DNA of 32,224 nucleotides from a virus. The position numbers and the translations under genes were made by a program. Shown here one piece after another: positions 1 to 7,124 of the stretch. The stretch is taken from UHGV virus genome UHGV-0122054; one strand, 5' to 3'. Every line of letters begins with the position of its first letter. The first letter of the stretch is position 1. A model generated the notes under the pieces. It ran no database searches. It saw nothing but the letters and a program-made list of their open reading frames with translations, and had not been told where the DNA came from.

Positions 1-49
1 TTCTGCACCCTCAGAACATCAGGAGGCCGTCCGAAAGGGCGGTAGTGAA

Positions 50-232
50 ATGCGAAAATTCAAAATAATTATTGAAACGGGAATAGCCGGTGGAGATTTC
101 GAGGATGAATTCGAAGTGGATGATGATGCAACACCAGATGAAATACAGGATGAAGCTAAAGATATTTTCTTTAACTACTGCAATTACTCATACCACGAAA
201 TAAAAGACGAAGAGGAAGAACAAAATGGCTGA
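50..232 (+). CDS. Hypothetical small acidic phage protein (60 aa)
   Basis: ORF in track; same orientation as tightly packed neighbours; possible SD 'agggcgg' upstream. No recognised domain. Confidence 0.35.
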   Translation: MRKFKIIIETGIAGGDFEDEFEVDDDATPDEIQDEAKDIFFNYCNYSYHEIKDEEEEQNG

Positions 233-401
233 TTTTGGTTCAACTAAATATAACGCCAGTTTTGAAGAATGGCATGAACTGTTAATGGATTATGCAGAGT
301 TACGCGGTGGAAGTGCCGCTGATGCTGAAGCATGGCGTGATGATTATGAAGCAGGGAAAACACCGGTCGAAGCATATTGTGATGAGTGGGGCGATGAATG
401 A
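225..401 (+). CDS. Hypothetical small phage protein (58 aa, below track cutoff)
   Basis: ATG at 225 preceded by GAGGAAG; stop TGA 399-401 overlaps next ATG at 398 (ATGA coupling). Translates MADFGSTKYNASFEEWHELL... Confidence 0.35.
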   Translation: MADFGSTKYNASFEEWHELLMDYAELRGGSAADAEAWRDDYEAGKTPVEAYCDEWGDE

Positions 402-757
402 GCGAGATTAATTATCAGGAAGGGCATGAAAAGGCAGGGCAGGCAAAACCAGTGGCATGGCGATATCGCTACGTGAAAAAAGGCGTTACAGACTTTCAGG
501 GGAAGCAGTGGGTTGGTGACTGGAAATATGTACCGACAAAAGAGGATTGCAACGACAGACCGAACTATGAAATTCAGGCGTTATTCACTGCCCCGCCTGT
601 GCCACTGACACCAGAAGGATTGATTAAAGCAGTGCGTTTCTATGAACAGGTAAAGCGTGAGAATCCGCCAGTCGAAACCGGAGCATGGAAAGACGCTGTT
701 GACTGGGTGCTCAAAGAGGCTTGCCAGTCTGTAAACATTGGCATCAAAGGAGAGTGA
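398..757 (+). CDS. Hypothetical nin-region phage protein
   Basis: 119-aa ORF, 4-nt overlap with upstream gene; ends ...IGIKGE with an embedded SD for the next gene. Confidence 0.55.
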   Translation: MSEINYQEGHEKAGQAKPVAWRYRYVKKGVTDFQGKQWVGDWKYVPTKEDCNDRPNYEIQALFTAPPVPLTPEGLIKAVRFYEQVKRENPPVETGAWKDAVDWVLKEACQSVNIGIKGE

Positions 758-759
758 GA

Positions 760-1251
760 ATGCAAATTTCACCGGTTACTCTTCGTGTTGCGAAGGCGTT
801 TATATCCAGACATCACCGACACAATAAACCCCCGGTGGGGCATAAATTCAGCATTGGTCTGAGAAATGATGCCGGAGAATTGATAGGTGTGGCGACAGCC
901 GGTAGACCTGTTGCACGACATTTGGACGATGGATTAACGCTTGAAGTAAATCGCACATGTACCACAGGAGAACGCAACGCTAACAGCGCGCTTTATGGTG
1001 CTGTCTGGCGGGCAGCAAAGGCTATGGGTTATCAACGTTGTATTACGTACACCCAGGCAGATGAATCAGGAGCATCTCTCCGCGCAGCTGGTTTTGTTCG
1101 TGTGAAAGAGCTTCCTCCAAGAAAAAGCTGGGCGGAATCAAGCGTCGCCCTGCGGAGTAAACGCGATCCGGTCGGAAACGGTGGTGTTCCTCGTGTGCTC
1201 TGGGAAATCAGGAGAATGAGTACCACTGGCATTCGCATCAAAGGAGAGTGA
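760..1251 (+). CDS. Hypothetical nin-region phage protein (163 aa)
   Basis: Track ORF 721..1251; preferred start is ATG 760 just after AAAGGAGAG. Ends ...IRIKGE followed by the same junction sequence as the previous gene. Confidence 0.55.
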   Translation: MQISPVTLRVAKAFISRHHRHNKPPVGHKFSIGLRNDAGELIGVATAGRPVARHLDDGLTLEVNRTCTTGERNANSALYGAVWRAAKAMGYQRCITYTQADESGASLRAAGFVRVKELPPRKSWAESSVALRSKRDPVGNGGVPRVLWEIRRMSTTGIRIKGE

Positions 1252-1252
1252 T

Positions 1253-1516
1253 ATGGCAACTTTGACAAAAAAAGAACAAGCATGGTTGAGCGAATTACAG
1301 GACGTTCTTGATCGCTGTCCATCACCGAAAAAAATTGGTTTTTACACCATTGGCGATAAAAGCATTTACCTGTATGACCTGCGCCGCATGGATGAAATCA
1401 TGGAGGCTCTTGATAATCGTTCGTCGATGGATTGGTGTGTTGCTGTTCATGATATGAATGCAGGGTTTGATGAAAAGATTTTGTTCCCCTCATCAGTTGA
1501 AAGCACTGCGGGTTAA
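1253..1516 (+). CDS. Hypothetical phage protein (87 aa)
   Basis: ATG 2 nt after upstream stop, SD AAAGGAGAG. Confidence 0.5.
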   Translation: MATLTKKEQAWLSELQDVLDRCPSPKKIGFYTIGDKSIYLYDLRRMDEIMEALDNRSSMDWCVAVHDMNAGFDEKILFPSSVESTAG

Positions 1517-1526
1517 GGAGTAACAC

Positions 1527-2429
1527 ATGACCACTATTACCAAAGAACGTATTGAATTGTTCATTAAAAATCCGCTTGAAAACGGGCTTACCCGTGGTGA
1601 ACAAATGGAACTGGCACGGATTGCGCTGGCATCGCTGGAAGCAGATCCAGTTAAACGAGTTAACTCAGATCAGATGCGCCGAGTCTGCTTAGAAGCTAAT
1701 CGCCATTTAGATAAATATGACGCGATGGCGAAAGAGGTAAATAAGTTGCTTGGACGCATCGCCCCGCCAGCGCCGGTAGTGCCGGAAGAAGCAACTCCGG
1801 AAAACGTAGAAATGCTCTCTGGCTATGTTTCCACGTACAAATTAACCGATAGCGAGCGCGATATTGCTGCCGAAATATGGAACGCCTGCCGCACCGCCAT
1901 GCTTCAGTCCGGAAACTTTCGGGAAAGCAAGAATTCGTCAACCAATAATTTTCGGGAAATCCCGGAAGCGTCAACCAGCTCTCCGGTAACTCCGGCTCTT
2001 CTGCCTGGTGGTTTCACCATTGAGGAGGCGAAGGAATTACATGAAGACCTGGTACGCAGCCACATAAGCAAGGCCTTAAGTGGCGAAAAGATGAAAAAGA
2101 AAGATCGCGATGCTGATTTACGCTGGATTCATGGCGTTATAGTTCAGGCAGCGTGGTTTGTAAAAGCATCACTGGAGCAGAATGCACTATCGGGCAACTC
2201 TCCGGCAACTCCGGATGGTTGGATAAGCTGTAGTGAGCGAATGCCGAATACCAAAACAGCCGTTCTTGTTGCCGTGGAGTTTGACAGGAAAGGTGACTGG
2301 CGAATGAAATGGGCTACTTACATCCCCGGGCATCCTGACGCTAATGATGGGTGGATAATTCCTGGTGCGTCGTGGAAACCGTCACACTGGATGCCGCTAC
2401 CAGAACCGCCGCAGGAGGTGAATCAATGA
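1527..2429 (+). CDS. Phage protein with DUF551-like C-terminal region
   Basis: 300-aa ORF; SD 'aaggag' upstream; C-terminal W/P-rich segment resembles DUF551 phage proteins (from memory, unverified). Confidence 0.5.
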   Translation: MTTITKERIELFIKNPLENGLTRGEQMELARIALASLEADPVKRVNSDQMRRVCLEANRHLDKYDAMAKEVNKLLGRIAPPAPVVPEEATPENVEMLSGYVSTYKLTDSERDIAAEIWNACRTAMLQSGNFRESKNSSTNNFREIPEASTSSPVTPALLPGGFTIEEAKELHEDLVRSHISKALSGEKMKKKDRDADLRWIHGVIVQAAWFVKASLEQNALSGNSPATPDGWISCSERMPNTKTAVLVAVEFDRKGDWRMKWATYIPGHPDANDGWIIPGASWKPSHWMPLPEPPQEVNQ

Positions 2430-2509
2430 GCTGGCCTGAAGCATTAACAACGGTAGGAATTGCGATGGCGGTGGCGCTGGTGGTGTATTCGATTTGCCGC
2501 TGGGGATAA
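2426..2509 (+). CDS. Small hydrophobic peptide (27 aa, MSWPEALTTVGIAMAVALVVYSICRWG)
   Basis: ATGA overlap with upstream stop (2426-2429); single hydrophobic helix; below track cutoff. Confidence 0.3.
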   Translation: MSWPEALTTVGIAMAVALVVYSICRWG

Positions 2510-2720
2510 AAACGGTTTGCGGGAAAAGGAGAGTTAAGTAGAATTGCAGCGGGTGCTTGAGGCTATCTGTCTCAGGCATGAACACCAAAAGGCAGATAGA
2601 GAAAAGCCCCAGTTAACATTACGCGTCCGGCAAGACGCTTAACATTAATCTGAGGCCCAATCTATGTCTCACAAATGTAGGTTAGCCTCTTACGTGCCGA
2701 AAGGCAAGGAGAAGCAGGCT

Positions 2721-2876
2721 ATGAAGCAGCAAAAGGCGATGTTAATCGCCCTGATCGTCATCTGTTTAACCGTCATAGTGACGGCACTGGTAACGAGGAA
2801 AGACCTCTGCGAGGTACGAATCCGAACCGGCCAGACGGAGGTCGCTGTCTTCACAGCTTACGAACCTGAGGAGTAA
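2721..2876 (+). CDS. hokD: Hok/Gef-family type I toxin (HokD/RelF-like, 51 aa)
   Basis: Translation MKQQKAMLIALIVICLTVIVTALVTRKDLCEVRIRTGQTEVAVFTAYEPEE matches my recollection of HokD/RelF. In-frame upstream extension from ATG 2664 gives the 70-aa track ORF (mok-like leader). Confidence 0.85.
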   Translation: MKQQKAMLIALIVICLTVIVTALVTRKDLCEVRIRTGQTEVAVFTAYEPEE

Positions 2877-2946
2877 GAGACCCGGCGGGGGAGAAATCCC
2901 TCGCCACCTCTGATGTGTCAGGCATCCTCAACGCACCCGCACGTAA

Positions 2947-2971
2947 CCCGCTTCGGCGGGTTTTGTTTTTT
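2947..2971 (+). terminator. Intrinsic terminator after hok (CCCGC-UUCG-GCGGG, then T-run)
   Basis: 5-bp GC stem with UUCG tetraloop followed by TTTTGTTTTTT. Confidence 0.75.
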
Positions 2972-3171
2972 CCTGGCATTCTGGTTTACAATTCGCACGC
3001 CAGCCTGAACAACTGGCACCTGCTGCGCCAGCAGAGACAACCGATGGCGCACGATACCAAATTACACAATTCTAATGATTCTGCCGTCTTTGCCAGTAGG
3101 TGCGGACGGCGTTTTCACGCATTCAAATCAGACTGGTTCCAGCATCCTCCATGCACTGAAGAGCAGGCGGA

Positions 3172-3996
3172 ATGGATAATTCAGTGTTACCGCAGGCGCG
3201 GATACTGCGCCATGTTAAATCCTGCCAGTGGCCACACGGCGATTATCACCACAGTGAAACCGTCATTCACCGTTATGGTACCGGCGCAATGGTGTTGTGC
3301 TGGCACTGCGACAACCAGCTGCGCGACCAGACCTCCGAATCACTCGGGCAACTTGCTCACCAAAACCTGTCTGCATGGATGATTGACGTCATACGCCATG
3401 CAATGAATGGCTCGCAGGAACGGGAATTATCGCTGGCTGAATTATCCTGGTGGGCGGTCCGCAATCAGGTGGCGGACGCGCTACCGGAAGCGGTATTACG
3501 TCGTTCGCTGGGGTTGCGTGCGGAAAAAATCCGCTCAATGTACCGTGAAAGCGACATCGTACCGGGAGAGCAGACCGCCACCAGCATACTGAAACAGCGC
3601 ACAAAAAATCTTGCGCCGCTGCCTCACGCCCACCAGCAACAGAACCCACCACAGGAAAAGACGGTGGTCAGCATTGCCGTTGATCCTGAGTCTCCGGAAT
3701 CTTTCATGAAACGACCTAAACGTCGCCGCTGGGTTAACGAGAAATACACTCGCTGGGTGAAGACACAGCCGTGTGCGTGTTGTGGTAAGCCAGCCGACGA
3801 TCCCCATCACCTGATTGGTCATGGTCAGGGCGGAATGGGGACAAAATCTCACGATATTTTCACGCTACCGCTGTGTCGGGAGCATCACAACGAGTTTCAT
3901 GCGAATCCGCTGGCGTTCGAAGAAAAGCATGGTTCTCAGGTTGATTTAATTTTTCGTTTTCTTGATCACGCCTTTGCAACTGGCGTGCTTGGGTAA
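3172..3996 (+). CDS. DUF968-like phage protein with C-terminal Cys/His zinc-binding HNH-like motif; 5' boundary uncertain
   Basis: C-terminus CACCGKP...HHLIGHGQGG...LCREHHNEFH typical of YdfU/DUF968-type proteins. Overlapping frame-2 ORF 2915..3382 makes the start ambiguous (see findings). Confidence 0.6.
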   Translation: MDNSVLPQARILRHVKSCQWPHGDYHHSETVIHRYGTGAMVLCWHCDNQLRDQTSESLGQLAHQNLSAWMIDVIRHAMNGSQERELSLAELSWWAVRNQVADALPEAVLRRSLGLRAEKIRSMYRESDIVPGEQTATSILKQRTKNLAPLPHAHQQQNPPQEKTVVSIAVDPESPESFMKRPKRRRWVNEKYTRWVKTQPCACCGKPADDPHHLIGHGQGGMGTKSHDIFTLPLCREHHNEFHANPLAFEEKHGSQVDLIFRFLDHAFATGVLG

Positions 3997-4008
3997 AAGA
4001 GGTGACTG

Positions 4009-4383
4009 ATGCTCATAGATTTGGTTTTACCTTACCCGCCGACGGTGAACACTTACTGGCGACGCCGTGGCAGCACATATTTTATCTCGGAGGAGGGAAA
4101 GCGTTATCGCCGGGCTGTGGCGCTTATTGTTCGCCAGCAGCGGCTGAAATTAAGCCTGTCCGGAAGGCTGGCGATAAAGGTGATTGCAGAGCCACCGGAT
4201 AAGCGTCGTCGCGACCTGGACAATATCCTGAAAGCACCGCTGGATGCGCTGACGCATGCGGGAGTGTTAATGGACGATGAGCAGTTTGATGAAATCAATA
4301 TCGTTCGTGGTCAGCCAGTATCTGGTGGACGTATGGGGGTGAAGATTTACCCCATAATGCATGAAGAGCAGGTCAAAAAATGA
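4009..4383 (+). CDS. rusA: Holliday junction resolvase RusA
   Basis: 124 aa; PYPPTVNTYWRRRG...RRRDLDN...DDEQ pattern matches RusA family; SD AAGAGG upstream. Confidence 0.85.
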   Translation: MLIDLVLPYPPTVNTYWRRRGSTYFISEEGKRYRRAVALIVRQQRLKLSLSGRLAIKVIAEPPDKRRRDLDNILKAPLDALTHAGVLMDDEQFDEINIVRGQPVSGGRMGVKIYPIMHEEQVKK

Positions 4384-5201
4384 AACTGGAAGATTTACCG
4401 AAATACTACTCCCCAAAATCCCCTGGCCTGACCGATGCATCGGCCTCAACGTCAAAAGATGCGCTGAGTATCACTGATGTGATGGCCGCGCAGGGCATGA
4501 CACAGAATCGGGCTGAGATGGGGTTTTCTGCGTTCCTGGGGAAAATGGGCATCAGTATGAATGACAGGGCGCGGGCAACAGAATTACTGGCAGATTATGC
4601 ACTCAGTCGGTGCGATCGTGTGGCGGCGTTGAGAAAACTTCCGGCAGAAATAAAACCGGTAGTGATGCGCATTATGGCTTCGTATGCGTTTGAAGATTAT
4701 GCCCGTAGCGCGGCGAGCAAAAAACAGTGCCCCTGCTGTCACGGAAAAAAATTTATTGAAAGCGAGGTTTTTACAAACAAGATCCAGTATCCGGATGGTA
4801 AGCCACCAGTGTGGGCAAAGTGCACAAAAGGCGTGTATCCGTCTTACTGGGAAGAATGGAAAAAAGTCAGGGAGGTGGTAAAAGTTGCCTGTCCGGAGTG
4901 TGGCGGAAAGGGTGAGGTTTCCACCGCCTGTAAGGATTGCCGTGGGCGTGGTGTCGCCATTCATCGTGAAGAGTCGGTAAAACGTGGTATGCCTGTTATC
5001 AGAGATTGCCAGCGTTGTGGTGGTCGTGGCTGTGAAAGGCTGCCATCAACGGAGGCATTTAATGCCATATGCAAAGTGACGAGTGCTATCACGCTTGATA
5101 CGTGGAAAAAATCAGTGAAACGCTTTTACGATACGTTGGTGGTTCGGTTTGACATTGAAGAGGCATGGGCGGAGCGGCAGTTAAAGAGGGTAACGCGATA
5201 G
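4380..5201 (+). CDS. Late-gene antitermination protein Q (QuuQ/Q82-like)
   Basis: N-terminal LPKYYSPKSP and CxxC...CxxC zinc cluster; ATGA overlap with rusA; immediately followed by a PR'-like promoter. Confidence 0.75.
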   Translation: MKLEDLPKYYSPKSPGLTDASASTSKDALSITDVMAAQGMTQNRAEMGFSAFLGKMGISMNDRARATELLADYALSRCDRVAALRKLPAEIKPVVMRIMASYAFEDYARSAASKKQCPCCHGKKFIESEVFTNKIQYPDGKPPVWAKCTKGVYPSYWEEWKKVREVVKVACPECGGKGEVSTACKDCRGRGVAIHREESVKRGMPVIRDCQRCGGRGCERLPSTEAFNAICKVTSAITLDTWKKSVKRFYDTLVVRFDIEEAWAERQLKRVTR

Positions 5202-5206
5202 TGTTG

Positions 5207-5250
5207 TTGATTTTTCCCGAATCTGTGGTAAATTTGCTCTAACGATGGGC
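5207..5250 (+). promoter_or_regulatory. PR'-like late promoter with qut/pause element
   Basis: -35 TTGATT (5207-5212), 16-nt spacer, -10 TAAATT (5229-5234), then ...CTCTAACGATGGG, very close to the lambda PR' initial transcribed region. Confidence 0.6.
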
Positions 5251-5283
5251 GTTTTATGCCTGACGTTAGAAGATTTTTTACAC

Positions 5284-5305
5284 CCCGCCGCCTGGCGGGT
5301 TTTTT
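5284..5305 (+). terminator. tR'-like intrinsic terminator
   Basis: CCCGCC-GCCT-GGCGGG hairpin followed by TTTTTT, about 50 nt downstream of the predicted start. Confidence 0.7.
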
Positions 5306-5427
5306 ATGACTGAAATCGCGTCAGTACAGTAAACGCGCTGGTGGCGGTGAATACCTGTCTTTCAGCTTGCTGGCTTTTTCGACAAGAGTTATTGGTGTGT
5401 CACGTTAACCGGAAAAGGGAAAAAGAC

Positions 5428-5625
5428 ATGCTAAAACAGCAGGATATGACAGAAACCGCCAGAGTGGTGTTTAATGAATTAAGCGTTACCGAACCGGCGA
5501 CAGTCGGGGAGATAGCGCAGAATACTTACCTTTCACGCGAACGCTGCCAGTTAATACTGACCCAGCTGGTTATGGCGGGTCTGGCAGACTATCAGTTCGG
5601 TTGTTACAGACGCCTTCCGCAGTGA
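5428..5625 (+). CDS. Small putative DNA-binding (winged-helix-like) protein (65 aa)
   Basis: Track ORF 5341..5625; preferred ATG 5428 after 'aaaggga'; stop lies inside a terminator hairpin. Confidence 0.4.
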   Translation: MLKQQDMTETARVVFNELSVTEPATVGEIAQNTYLSRERCQLILTQLVMAGLADYQFGCYRRLPQ

Positions 5626-5636
5626 AGGCTTTTTTA
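5612..5636 (+). terminator. Intrinsic terminator
   Basis: GCCTTC-CGCAGT-GAAGGC hairpin followed by TTTTTTATTT. Confidence 0.7.
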
Positions 5637-5775
5637 TTTGTGGTAAATGGGCGGCTGGTGGGTGTTAGGGGCACCCACCAGCCATCTGCTCATGCGTTGG
5701 GTTCACAAGCAAACCTCAGGCCCACTGCTTTGCGCAAAAGCAGAATGAGCCTATCAGAGACAGGCTTAATGATCC

Positions 5776-6825
5776 ATGCTTAATACTGTAAAAATATCCA
5801 GTTGTGAGTTAATCAACGCCGACTGCCTGGAATTTATCCGGTCGTTACCCGAAAATTCTGTTGACCTGATAGTCACGGACCCGCCGTACTTTAAAGTGAA
5901 GCCTGAGGGCTGGGATAACCAGTGGAAGGGCGACGATGATTACCTGAAGTGGCTGGACCAGTGTCTGGCGCAGTTCTGGCGGGTGCTGAAACCTGCCGGA
6001 AGTCTTTACCTGTTCTGTGGTCATCGCCTGGCATCTGATATCGAAATCATGATGCGTGAACGCTTCAGTGTGCTGAACCATATTATCTGGGCGAAGCCGT
6101 CCGGACGCTGGAACGGATGCAACAAGGAAAGCCTGCGGGCGTATTTCCCCGCCACAGAGCGCATTCTGTTCGCGGAACATTATCAGGGGCCGTATCGTCC
6201 GAAAGATGCCGGGTATGCGGCGAAGGGCAGTGCACTGAAACAGCATGTGATGGCCCCGCTGATTTCTTACTTTCGTGATGCGCGCGCGGCCCTGGGGATA
6301 ACGGCAAAACAGATTGCAGATGCCACAGGAAAGAAAAACATGGTGTCGCACTGGTTCAGTGCCAGTCAGTGGCAGCTACCGAACGAAAGCGATTATCTGA
6401 AATTACAGTCGCTGTTTGCCCGGGTGGCAGAAGAGAAACATCAGCGCGGTGAACTGGAAAAGCCCCACCACCAGCTGGTGGATACGTATACGTCACTGAA
6501 CCGGCAGTATGTGGAGCTGCAGAGTGAATATAAGCATCTGCGGCGGTATTTTGGTGTGACGGCGCAGGTGCCGTACACGGATGTGTGGACACATAAACCG
6601 GTGCAGTTCTATCCCGGGAAACATCCGTGCGAAAAACCGGCAGAAATGCTGCAGCAGATAATCAGCGCAAGCAGTCGTCCGGGTGACCTGGTTGCAGATT
6701 TTTTTATGGGCTCAGGTTCAACGGTAAAAGCGGCACTGGCGCTCGGGCGTCGTGCGATTGGCGTTGAACTGGAGACCGGACGTTTTGAGCAGACAGTCAG
6801 GGAAGTTCAGGATTTAATCGTTTGA
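5776..6825 (+). CDS. N6-adenine DNA methyltransferase (orphan)
   Basis: N-terminal ...DLIVTDPPY (DPPY motif) and FxGSGST AdoMet-binding motif near the C-terminus; no adjacent restriction gene. Confidence 0.85.
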   Translation: MLNTVKISSCELINADCLEFIRSLPENSVDLIVTDPPYFKVKPEGWDNQWKGDDDYLKWLDQCLAQFWRVLKPAGSLYLFCGHRLASDIEIMMRERFSVLNHIIWAKPSGRWNGCNKESLRAYFPATERILFAEHYQGPYRPKDAGYAAKGSALKQHVMAPLISYFRDARAALGITAKQIADATGKKNMVSHWFSASQWQLPNESDYLKLQSLFARVAEEKHQRGELEKPHHQLVDTYTSLNRQYVELQSEYKHLRRYFGVTAQVPYTDVWTHKPVQFYPGKHPCEKPAEMLQQIISASSRPGDLVADFFMGSGSTVKAALALGRRAIGVELETGRFEQTVREVQDLIV

Positions 6826-6874
6826 AACGGATGAGATTGCAGAATTAATTACGCACCATTATTATTCTGCTCCC

Positions 6875-6950
6875 GGCCCTTTAGCTCAGTGGTGAGAGCG
6901 AGCGACTCATAATCGCCAGGTCGCTGGTTCAAATCCAGCAAGGGCCACCA
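6875..6950 (+). tRNA. tRNA with CAU anticodon (Ile2/lysidine type; ileZ-like of Stx phages)
   Basis: 76 nt; acceptor GGCCCTT/AAGGGCC, D-arm GCTC..GAGC, anticodon loop CTCATAA, T-loop TTCAAAT, CCA end; close to E. coli ileX in my recollection. Confidence 0.85.
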
Positions 6951-6957
6951 TCACATA

Positions 6958-7034
6958 CCGCCATTAGCTCATCAGGAAAGAGCGCCAGCCTTCGAAGCTG
7001 GTTGCGCGGAGTTCGGGTCCCCGAAGGCGGTCCA
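6958..7034 (+). tRNA. tRNA-Arg-like (anticodon UCG), possibly imperfect
   Basis: 77 nt cloverleaf with perfect anticodon stem (CCAGC/GCTGG, loop CTTCGAA), but one mismatch in the acceptor stem (A.A) and one in the T-stem (A.C). Confidence 0.5.
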
Positions 7035-7047
7035 TTATCTGTATCCT

Positions 7048-7124
7048 GCGTTGTTAGCTCAGCCGGACAGAGCAATTGCCTTCTAAGCAATCGGTCACTG
7101 GTTCGAATCCAGTACAACGCGCCA
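7048..7124 (+). tRNA. tRNA-Arg (anticodon UCU; argO/argU-like)
   Basis: 77 nt; acceptor GCGTTGT/ACAACGC, anticodon loop CTTCTAA, T-arm ACTGG-TTCGAAT-CCAGT, CCA end. Confidence 0.85.

Follow-up and report, generated by a model that had tools for sequence, protein, structure and literature searches.

The window analysed here is the whole 32,224-nucleotide stretch of the virus genome UHGV-0122054. The locus of interest lies in a lambdoid early-right (ninR-like) region with the order hok – small gene – ydfU – rusA – Q, and the features of the region are as follows:

1527–2429, plus strand: DUF551 gene, a 300-aa uninterrupted ORF with a C-terminal DUF551 domain (ORF list, Pfam).
2551–2726, plus strand: match to Rfam 'sok' (RF01794) at 120 bits, on the same strand as hok.
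2664–2876, plus strand: hok/mok ORF (PF01848; Pfam).
2915–3043, plus strand: spurious 5′ extension of the frame-2 ORF, holding the hok/mok terminator.
2945–2962 with a T-run (to 2972), plus strand: intrinsic terminator of the hok/mok transcript, stem AACCCGC-TTCG-GCGGGTT (terminator scan).
3044–3205, plus strand: 5′ remnant of a small gene, codons 1–54 (MAHDTKLHNS...RRRGY; phrog_1212), scored as partial by PGAP.
3172–3205, plus strand: codons added by chance on the 5′ side of the ydfU frame (MDNSVLPQARI), where the small gene is read off-frame.
3203–3208, plus strand: deletion junction between 3205 and 3206 (alignment with phage Evi, breakpoint mapping against Escherichia coli AREA_492, 60-nt junction match).
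3206–3382, plus strand: out-of-frame read-through into ydfU (CAMLNPASGH...), 58 nonsense codons ending in TGA at 3380–3382.
3206–3996, plus strand: 3′ remnant of a YdfU-type DUF968 / His-Me-finger (HNH) nuclease gene, residues 87–349 of 349.
3379–3382, plus strand: ATGA overlap of the frame-2 stop and frame-1 Met70, internal ydfU codons Trp-Met-Ile.
4009–4383, plus strand: rusA (ORF list, Pfam).
4380–5201, plus strand: Q-type antiterminator (Antiterm domain), with an ATGA overlap with rusA at 4380–4383.
5776–6825: DNA methyltransferase gene, upstream of the tRNA cluster.
6875–7124, plus strand: three tRNA genes, with a CAT anticodon, Arg-TCG and Arg-TCT (ARAGORN).

The ORF list confirms the two overlapping plus-strand frames from which the original prediction set out, i.e., a frame-2 ORF at 2915–3382 (GTG start, 155 aa) and a frame-1 ORF at 3172–3996 (ATG start, 274 aa), both of which are open across the 211 nt of 3172–3382. 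The ATGA motif at which the two were said to meet is present one base from the reported 3378: the frame-2 stop TGA occupies 3380–3382 and the in-frame frame-1 ATG, encoding Met70 of the 274-aa ORF, occupies 3379–3381. The start at 2915 had been disfavoured on account of the hok terminator, and rightly, as the terminator lies within the 2915 ORF and ahead of ATG 3044, where the gene truly starts; codons 1–43 of that ORF are therefore the noncoding 3′ end of hok. The terminator sequence is identical in phage Evi, and the position matching 3044 is where PGAP places the start of the small gene. Directly upstream lies a complete hok/sok-type type I toxin-antitoxin locus, comprising the sok match, the mok/hok ORF, and the terminator at 2945–2972.

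The gene starting at ATG 3044 is recognizable from its intact relatives, in which it has 92 codons (MAHDTKLHNS...QQRIWR; the intact 92-aa homologue lies at 3665–3943 of homologue L006) and sits directly upstream of ydfU in the arrangement TAA-N-GTG, with GGAGG inside its own end. Its first 54 residues, at 3044–3205 of the window, are identical to the copy in AREA_492 over all 54 (tblastn and sequence comparison). The intact small protein of AREA_492 covers positions 1–66 of the phrog_1212 profile; the product from ATG 3044 matches positions 1–29 of 66 only, through its residues 27–55, falling short of the whole profile, and no PHROGs family matches it past residue 55. Neither Pfam nor NCBIfam has a family for the frame-2 product or the intact 92-aa protein, which are recognized by PHROGs only (phrog_1212, unknown-function). 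Furthermore, a collection of 15 billion proteins contains no exact copy of either the 112-aa or the 155-aa frame-2 product, so gene callers do not report them.

The description of this small gene as rem-like has to be abandoned, because K-12 Rem has no significant tblastn match in the window. Searches of the whole window with K-12 Rem and with rem of the PPompW phages yielded nothing significant (best E = 0.31), and the identification of the small gene as Rem is rejected for want of this similarity. K-12 Rem (b1561, 83 aa, MMNIEELRKIF...) and PPompW rem (MRIEELREIF...) represent a different gene, which in those prophages occupies the space separating hok from the 92-codon ORF. In the window rem is absent altogether, and the remnant of the small gene comes next after hok. 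In K-12 MG1655 (NC_000913.3, L012), an intact 92-codon ORF (MARNAKYYNSDNS...QQRIWR) is located at complement 1644306..1644584 between rem (b1561) and ydfU (b1560), in a 346-nt stretch without an annotated feature. This ORF shares 76% identity with the truncated small gene of the window, and a single base separates its end from the ydfU GTG. Since it is conserved, with annotated copies both in some phages and in further E. coli (WP_032155008.1), it appears to be a gene missing from the MG1655 annotation.

The frame-1 ORF belongs to a different family. Pfam assigns PF06147 (DUF968) to its residues 85–271 over the entire profile (1–171 of 171; E = 1.4e-76; 256.7 bits against a gathering cut-off of 27.8) and nothing to the frame-2 ORF, and the frame-1 product matches phrog_96 ('HNH endonuclease') at positions 85–333 of 334 through residues 10–273. 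The two intact AREA_492 proteins match phrog_1212 and phrog_96 end to end. In the Evi, vB_EcoS-689R5, and PPompW phages, intact ydfU comprises 349–351 codons and begins with a GTG one base after the TAA of the small gene. Residues 2–134 of intact YdfU are recognized by phrog_11007, of which the window product retains only positions 86–133 of 134; therefore, the deletion destroys most of the N-terminal module and spares the C-terminal HNH-type domain. The full-length YdfU architecture (~349 aa, an N-terminal module plus C-terminal HNH, with its own start and ribosome-binding site) is not retained, and by its sequence the DUF968 locus is a gene remnant instead of an intact family member. The remnant keeps the CxxC...HH...CxxHH motifs (CACCG...DDPHH...CREHHNEFH) of a predicted nuclease. 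DUF968 has been placed with DUF1364/YbcO (PDB 3g27) in group 7 of the His-Me finger (HNH) superfamily, its members typically adjoin rusA and Q, and their nuclease role is a prediction only (PMC5714182); fusions of the HNH module to a variety of recombination proteins are also on record (PMC4118853). It is PMC5714182 that connects the family with the YbcO structure 3g27; searching the PDB by sequence with intact YdfU gave no match at E ≤ 1. The papers found offer predictions only and contain no biochemical assay of YdfU itself.

Comparison with intact homologous prophages, which had been proposed as a check, revealed a 377-bp deletion relative to both Evi and AREA_492. In megablast searches against phage records, many relatives span approximately 377 more bases over the same DNA. 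The alignment with phage Evi contains a single clean gap of 377 nt in the window, between bases 3205 and 3206 (alignment columns 607–983), flanked by ~290 nt of 100% identity on the left and ~91% identity on the right. Among the matches listed for complete E. coli genomes, AREA_492 is the closest relative with intact genes; its flanks are 99.5% identical and its matched span of 1028 nt equals 651 + 377. In the PGAP annotation of that genome, a hypothetical protein of 92 aa (WP_032155008.1) precedes a DUF968 protein of 349 aa. In Evi, phage vB_EcoS-689R5, and the PPompW phages, the DNA opposite the gap comprises the 3′ part of the small gene and the 5′ part of ydfU. As mapped against AREA_492, codon 54 is the last codon of the small gene to be kept, and the deletion runs through the first base of ydfU codon 87. 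The small gene lost codons 55–92 and its stop codon, and ydfU lost codons 1–86 along with its GTG start and its GGAGG ribosome-binding site. The left (GGATAC/GAGG) and right (GGTTAC/TGCG) breakpoints form imperfect 6-bp direct repeats, GGATAC and GGTTAC, which match at 5 of 6 positions with three exact bases; these bases, TAC at 3203–3205, are a microhomology common to both parental breakpoints. The deletion would most likely have arisen through slippage or illegitimate recombination between the two repeats, although with three exact bases (5 of 6) the evidence for a microhomology-mediated mechanism is suggestive only.

It is very probable that the two ORFs are the leftovers of two neighbouring prophage genes fused out of frame by this deletion, both of them most likely inactive pseudogenes. 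The deletion, its size and breakpoints, the frames, the family assignments, and the presence in independent assemblies are all established, and none of the results speaks against the deletion as such. Because 377 mod 3 = 2, the small-gene frame enters ydfU one base off and stops at 3380–3382; ribosomes of the upstream gene would read 58 nonsense codons into ydfU, giving the 211-nt stretch open in both frames. In the other direction, no stop interrupts the ydfU frame over the 11 codons from ATG 3172 to the junction, and ATG 3172 is the start used by some gene callers for a 274-aa 'DUF968 protein'. The deletion and these 11 open codons explain both ORFs and their overlap completely. The overlap had been considered unlikely by chance, which is only mildly true: given the deletion, the sole improbable element is that the +1 off-frame of ydfU continues for 58 codons without a stop, and approximately 5% of +1 off-frame positions in the genes of the window yield a run of at least 58 codons. 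The off-frame is already open for 72 codons within intact ydfU (4162–4377 of L006), and the 211-nt overlap is a mildly lucky, unselected by-product of the deletion. Similarly, GCATGGATGATTGAC at the ATGA site also occurs within the intact ydfU of phage Evi and AREA_492, and ATGA at 3379–3382 reads as Trp-Met-Ile seen in two frames, not as a gene boundary.

The original prediction had offered two alternatives, each of which holds in part. A single ydfU-like gene of ~360 aa carrying a frameshift is correct insofar as the DUF968 gene is a pseudogene of a 349-aa YdfU-type gene, but the lesion is a 377-bp deletion that also took the end of the upstream gene, and not a frameshift within one gene; a sequencing error is ruled out by the same junction in independent assemblies. 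Nor does similarity jump frame within one gene near 3172–3382, as this alternative had implied; in the PHROGs profiles, the similarity of one gene ends at 3205 and that of another begins at 3206. The second alternative, a small gene coupled to a shorter DUF968 gene, correctly anticipated a genuine small gene, which begins at ATG 3044 and is coupled to ydfU in intact relatives, but this gene is cut after codon 54 and the supposed boundary ATGA consists of internal ydfU codons.

Whether anything is still made from the remnants depends on the translation signals. The native Shine-Dalgarno (SD) sequence of ydfU, GGAGG (-10.6 kcal/mol against the anti-SD), lies with the GTG inside the deleted segment. 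Three in-frame ATGs are left in the ydfU frame, at 3172, 3289, and 3379, none with a well-placed SD: an SD-like AGGCGGA abuts ATG 3172 with poor spacing (-5.8 kcal/mol), and ATG 3289 and ATG 3379 have essentially none (-0.9 kcal/mol for 3379). The start region of the small gene is unchanged relative to intact relatives, and the 112-aa chimeric ORF is probably still translated from it. As ydfU lost its ribosome-binding site, start codon, and most of the N-terminal domain, we infer that both genes are most likely inactive pseudogenes. Against loss of function, a complete Pfam DUF968/HNH domain is still encoded, and ATG 3379 overlaps the upstream stop, so a truncated nuclease could be produced by reinitiation.

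ATGA/TGATG overlaps support termination-reinitiation in bacteria, and the second of the original alternatives would survive in the form of a residual coupling in which the 112-aa chimeric ORF (3044–3382) is translated and reinitiation at the ATGA yields a 205-aa DUF968/HNH domain from Met70. The ATGA at 3379–3382 and the unaltered start region of the small gene are compatible with this, the product from Met70 would hold the whole Pfam DUF968 domain (residues 85–271 of the 274-aa ORF), and the rusA-Q boundary of the window (4380–4383) is an ATGA overlap too. Nevertheless, such coupling is unlikely: the motif is an internal Trp-Met-Ile of every intact ydfU and hence unselected as a boundary, no SD precedes ATG 3379 (-0.9 kcal/mol), the 205-aa product would lack the N-terminal ~155 residues, i.e., a Cys/His-rich segment and the phrog_11007 module (residues 2–134), and PGAP scores both parts as pseudogenes. 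That a new coupled pair of the 112-aa peptide and the 205-aa HNH domain retains or gains a function, e.g., as a deregulated nuclease or in a defence or toxin-like activity, is very improbable; a functional pair would account for the allele persisting unchanged on prophages with different late regions.

A programmed -1 frameshift or a point frameshift in one long gene (2915/3044–3996) would fit the geometry of the 211-nt overlap, which suits a -1 shift from frame 2 into frame 1, but it can be dismissed almost entirely, since the frames belong to two gene families that are separate genes in all intact relatives examined and 377 nt are missing, as compared with 1–2 nt for a point frameshift. No slippery heptamer of the form X XXY YYZ is present in 3044–3379 and no homopolymer of at least 6 in the overlap; with neither in place and with the homologue comparison against them, the programmed-frameshift and homopolymer-error readings were rejected.

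The occurrence of the junction in other genomes was assessed with a 50-nt probe centred on it, which cannot seed on one half alone. The probe found the junction in 2 of 5,426 complete E. coli genomes, i.e., FDAARGOS_1248 (USA) and strain 200112 (Mali). In the corresponding records (NZ_CP069542 and NZ_CM128591), PGAP annotates a 'hypothetical protein, incomplete, missing C-terminus' over the stretch that corresponds to 3044–3205 and a 'DUF968 domain-containing protein, incomplete, missing N-terminus' over that corresponding to 3202–3996. The 274-aa frame-1 product has been deposited as a 'DUF968 domain-containing protein' on 10–14 contigs; among the matches listed, four places carry this product, namely the isolate draft GCA_009767285.1 and three ENA metagenome contigs, and all four contain the exact 60-nt junction. 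Overall, this sequence is present in records L004, L005, and L008–L011 and absent from the four intact homologues L001–L003 and L006, and two of the metagenome contigs (L009 and L010) are 100% identical to the window. The exact junction has no match in GTDB species-representative genomes or in IMG/VR, so that beyond isolates of E. coli and metagenomes the allele is rare. A sequencing or assembly artefact, in which 377 bp were collapsed or dropped or an indel introduced while the real genes are intact, might be suspected from this rarity (two of the complete genomes; none of the GTDB representatives or IMG/VR) and from the identity of the window to metagenome-assembled contigs, as such assemblies can be chimeric, but it has next to no probability given that the 60-nt junction recurs in three separate metagenome assemblies, in an isolate draft, and in two closed chromosomes that differ in country and project of origin, and that the 3–5 bp shared by the breakpoints are too short a repeat for assembly collapse.

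Both flanks of the junction are covered in 3,015 of the 5,426 complete genomes; among the matches listed, all but the two deletion alleles consist of two or three pieces that are spaced as in the undeleted form or wider. K-12 Qin likewise has the intact 92-codon ORF followed by ydfU. The deletion allele is real, rare, and derived. It is kept at 99.8–100% identity on contigs with different late regions, so there is no strong counter-selection against it. Elsewhere in the window, a 119-aa ORF on the plus strand at 398–757 is intact, and metagenome contig L009, which is identical, has a gene call at this place; the equivalent of this ORF is annotated with an 'internal stop' in both complete genomes that contain the junction. 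The junction carriers have therefore diverged since the deletion.

The surroundings are mosaic. FDAARGOS_1248 has a heavily decayed prophage integrated at ompW, in which the terminase, tail-tip, and holin genes are truncated; its early region and positions 1–7089 of the window show 99.8% identity, and the two sequences diverge downstream. The late region of the window (7090–32224) is 96–97% identical to, and collinear with, prophages that have annotated terminase, portal, capsid, and tape-measure genes, and the morphogenesis region beside the deletion is apparently complete in the window. On these alignments, the deletion allele travels on a mosaic early-region module, in the manner of typical lambdoid mosaicism. 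Its position beside an apparently complete morphogenesis region is consistent with the two genes being dispensable accessory functions, which a lambdoid phage can plausibly lose, without proving it. Over the span of the DUF551 gene (1527–2429), PGAP gives two partial pseudogenes and a 112-aa DUF551 CDS in 99.9%-identical RefSeq genomes; this is probably a mosaic gene scored as fragments by PGAP. In the Q-type antiterminator, the DnaJ-type CXXCXGXG zinc-finger region is matched only weakly, below the threshold. The tRNA with the CAT anticodon is Met according to ARAGORN, and PGAP has a tRNA-Ile in the cluster in relatives; the near-identical prophage of FDAARGOS_1248 has only two tRNAs at the cluster.

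With respect to annotation, the locus is a case of ordinary prophage gene decay that is already annotated as pseudogenes in RefSeq/PGAP for identical sequences. The correct annotation is two partial pseudogenes, as opposed to the 274-aa 'DUF968 domain-containing protein' label in several GenBank records. Beyond this the locus has little importance, although it provides a clean example of how an out-of-frame, gene-fusing deletion mimics a frameshifted gene or an overlapping gene pair. A possibly useful by-product is the conserved, tightly coupled 92-codon ORF upstream of ydfU that is seemingly absent from the MG1655 annotation.

Four known systems provide the terms of comparison. The first is YdfU of the K-12 Qin cryptic prophage (b1560, 349 aa), with which the window is collinear over residues 87–349, including the full DUF968 match and the CxxC, HH, and CxxHH motifs, and with which it shares its gene neighbours, hok before it and rusA and the Q antiterminator after it; unlike K-12 YdfU, the window lacks the first 86 codons, the GTG, and the GGAGG, and 11 off-frame codons supply a fortuitous ATG. 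The small gene is known as a 'hypothetical protein' (WP_032155008.1) and as 'toxin to Rem' in ON470583. The window holds its residues 1–54, identical to the AREA_492 copy, but codons 55–92 and the stop codon of the intact gene are replaced by 58 unrelated codons. To Rem of K-12 Qin the likeness is one of position only, within the hok-to-ydfU interval of lambdoid prophages, without sequence similarity. Finally, nin deletions of phage lambda, of which nin5 is ~2.8 kb, lie between the replication genes and Q and keep the phage viable. The deletion in the window resembles nin deletions such as nin5 in its location in the accessory block between the replication genes and Q. In contrast to nin5, it spans only 377 bp and is internal to two genes.
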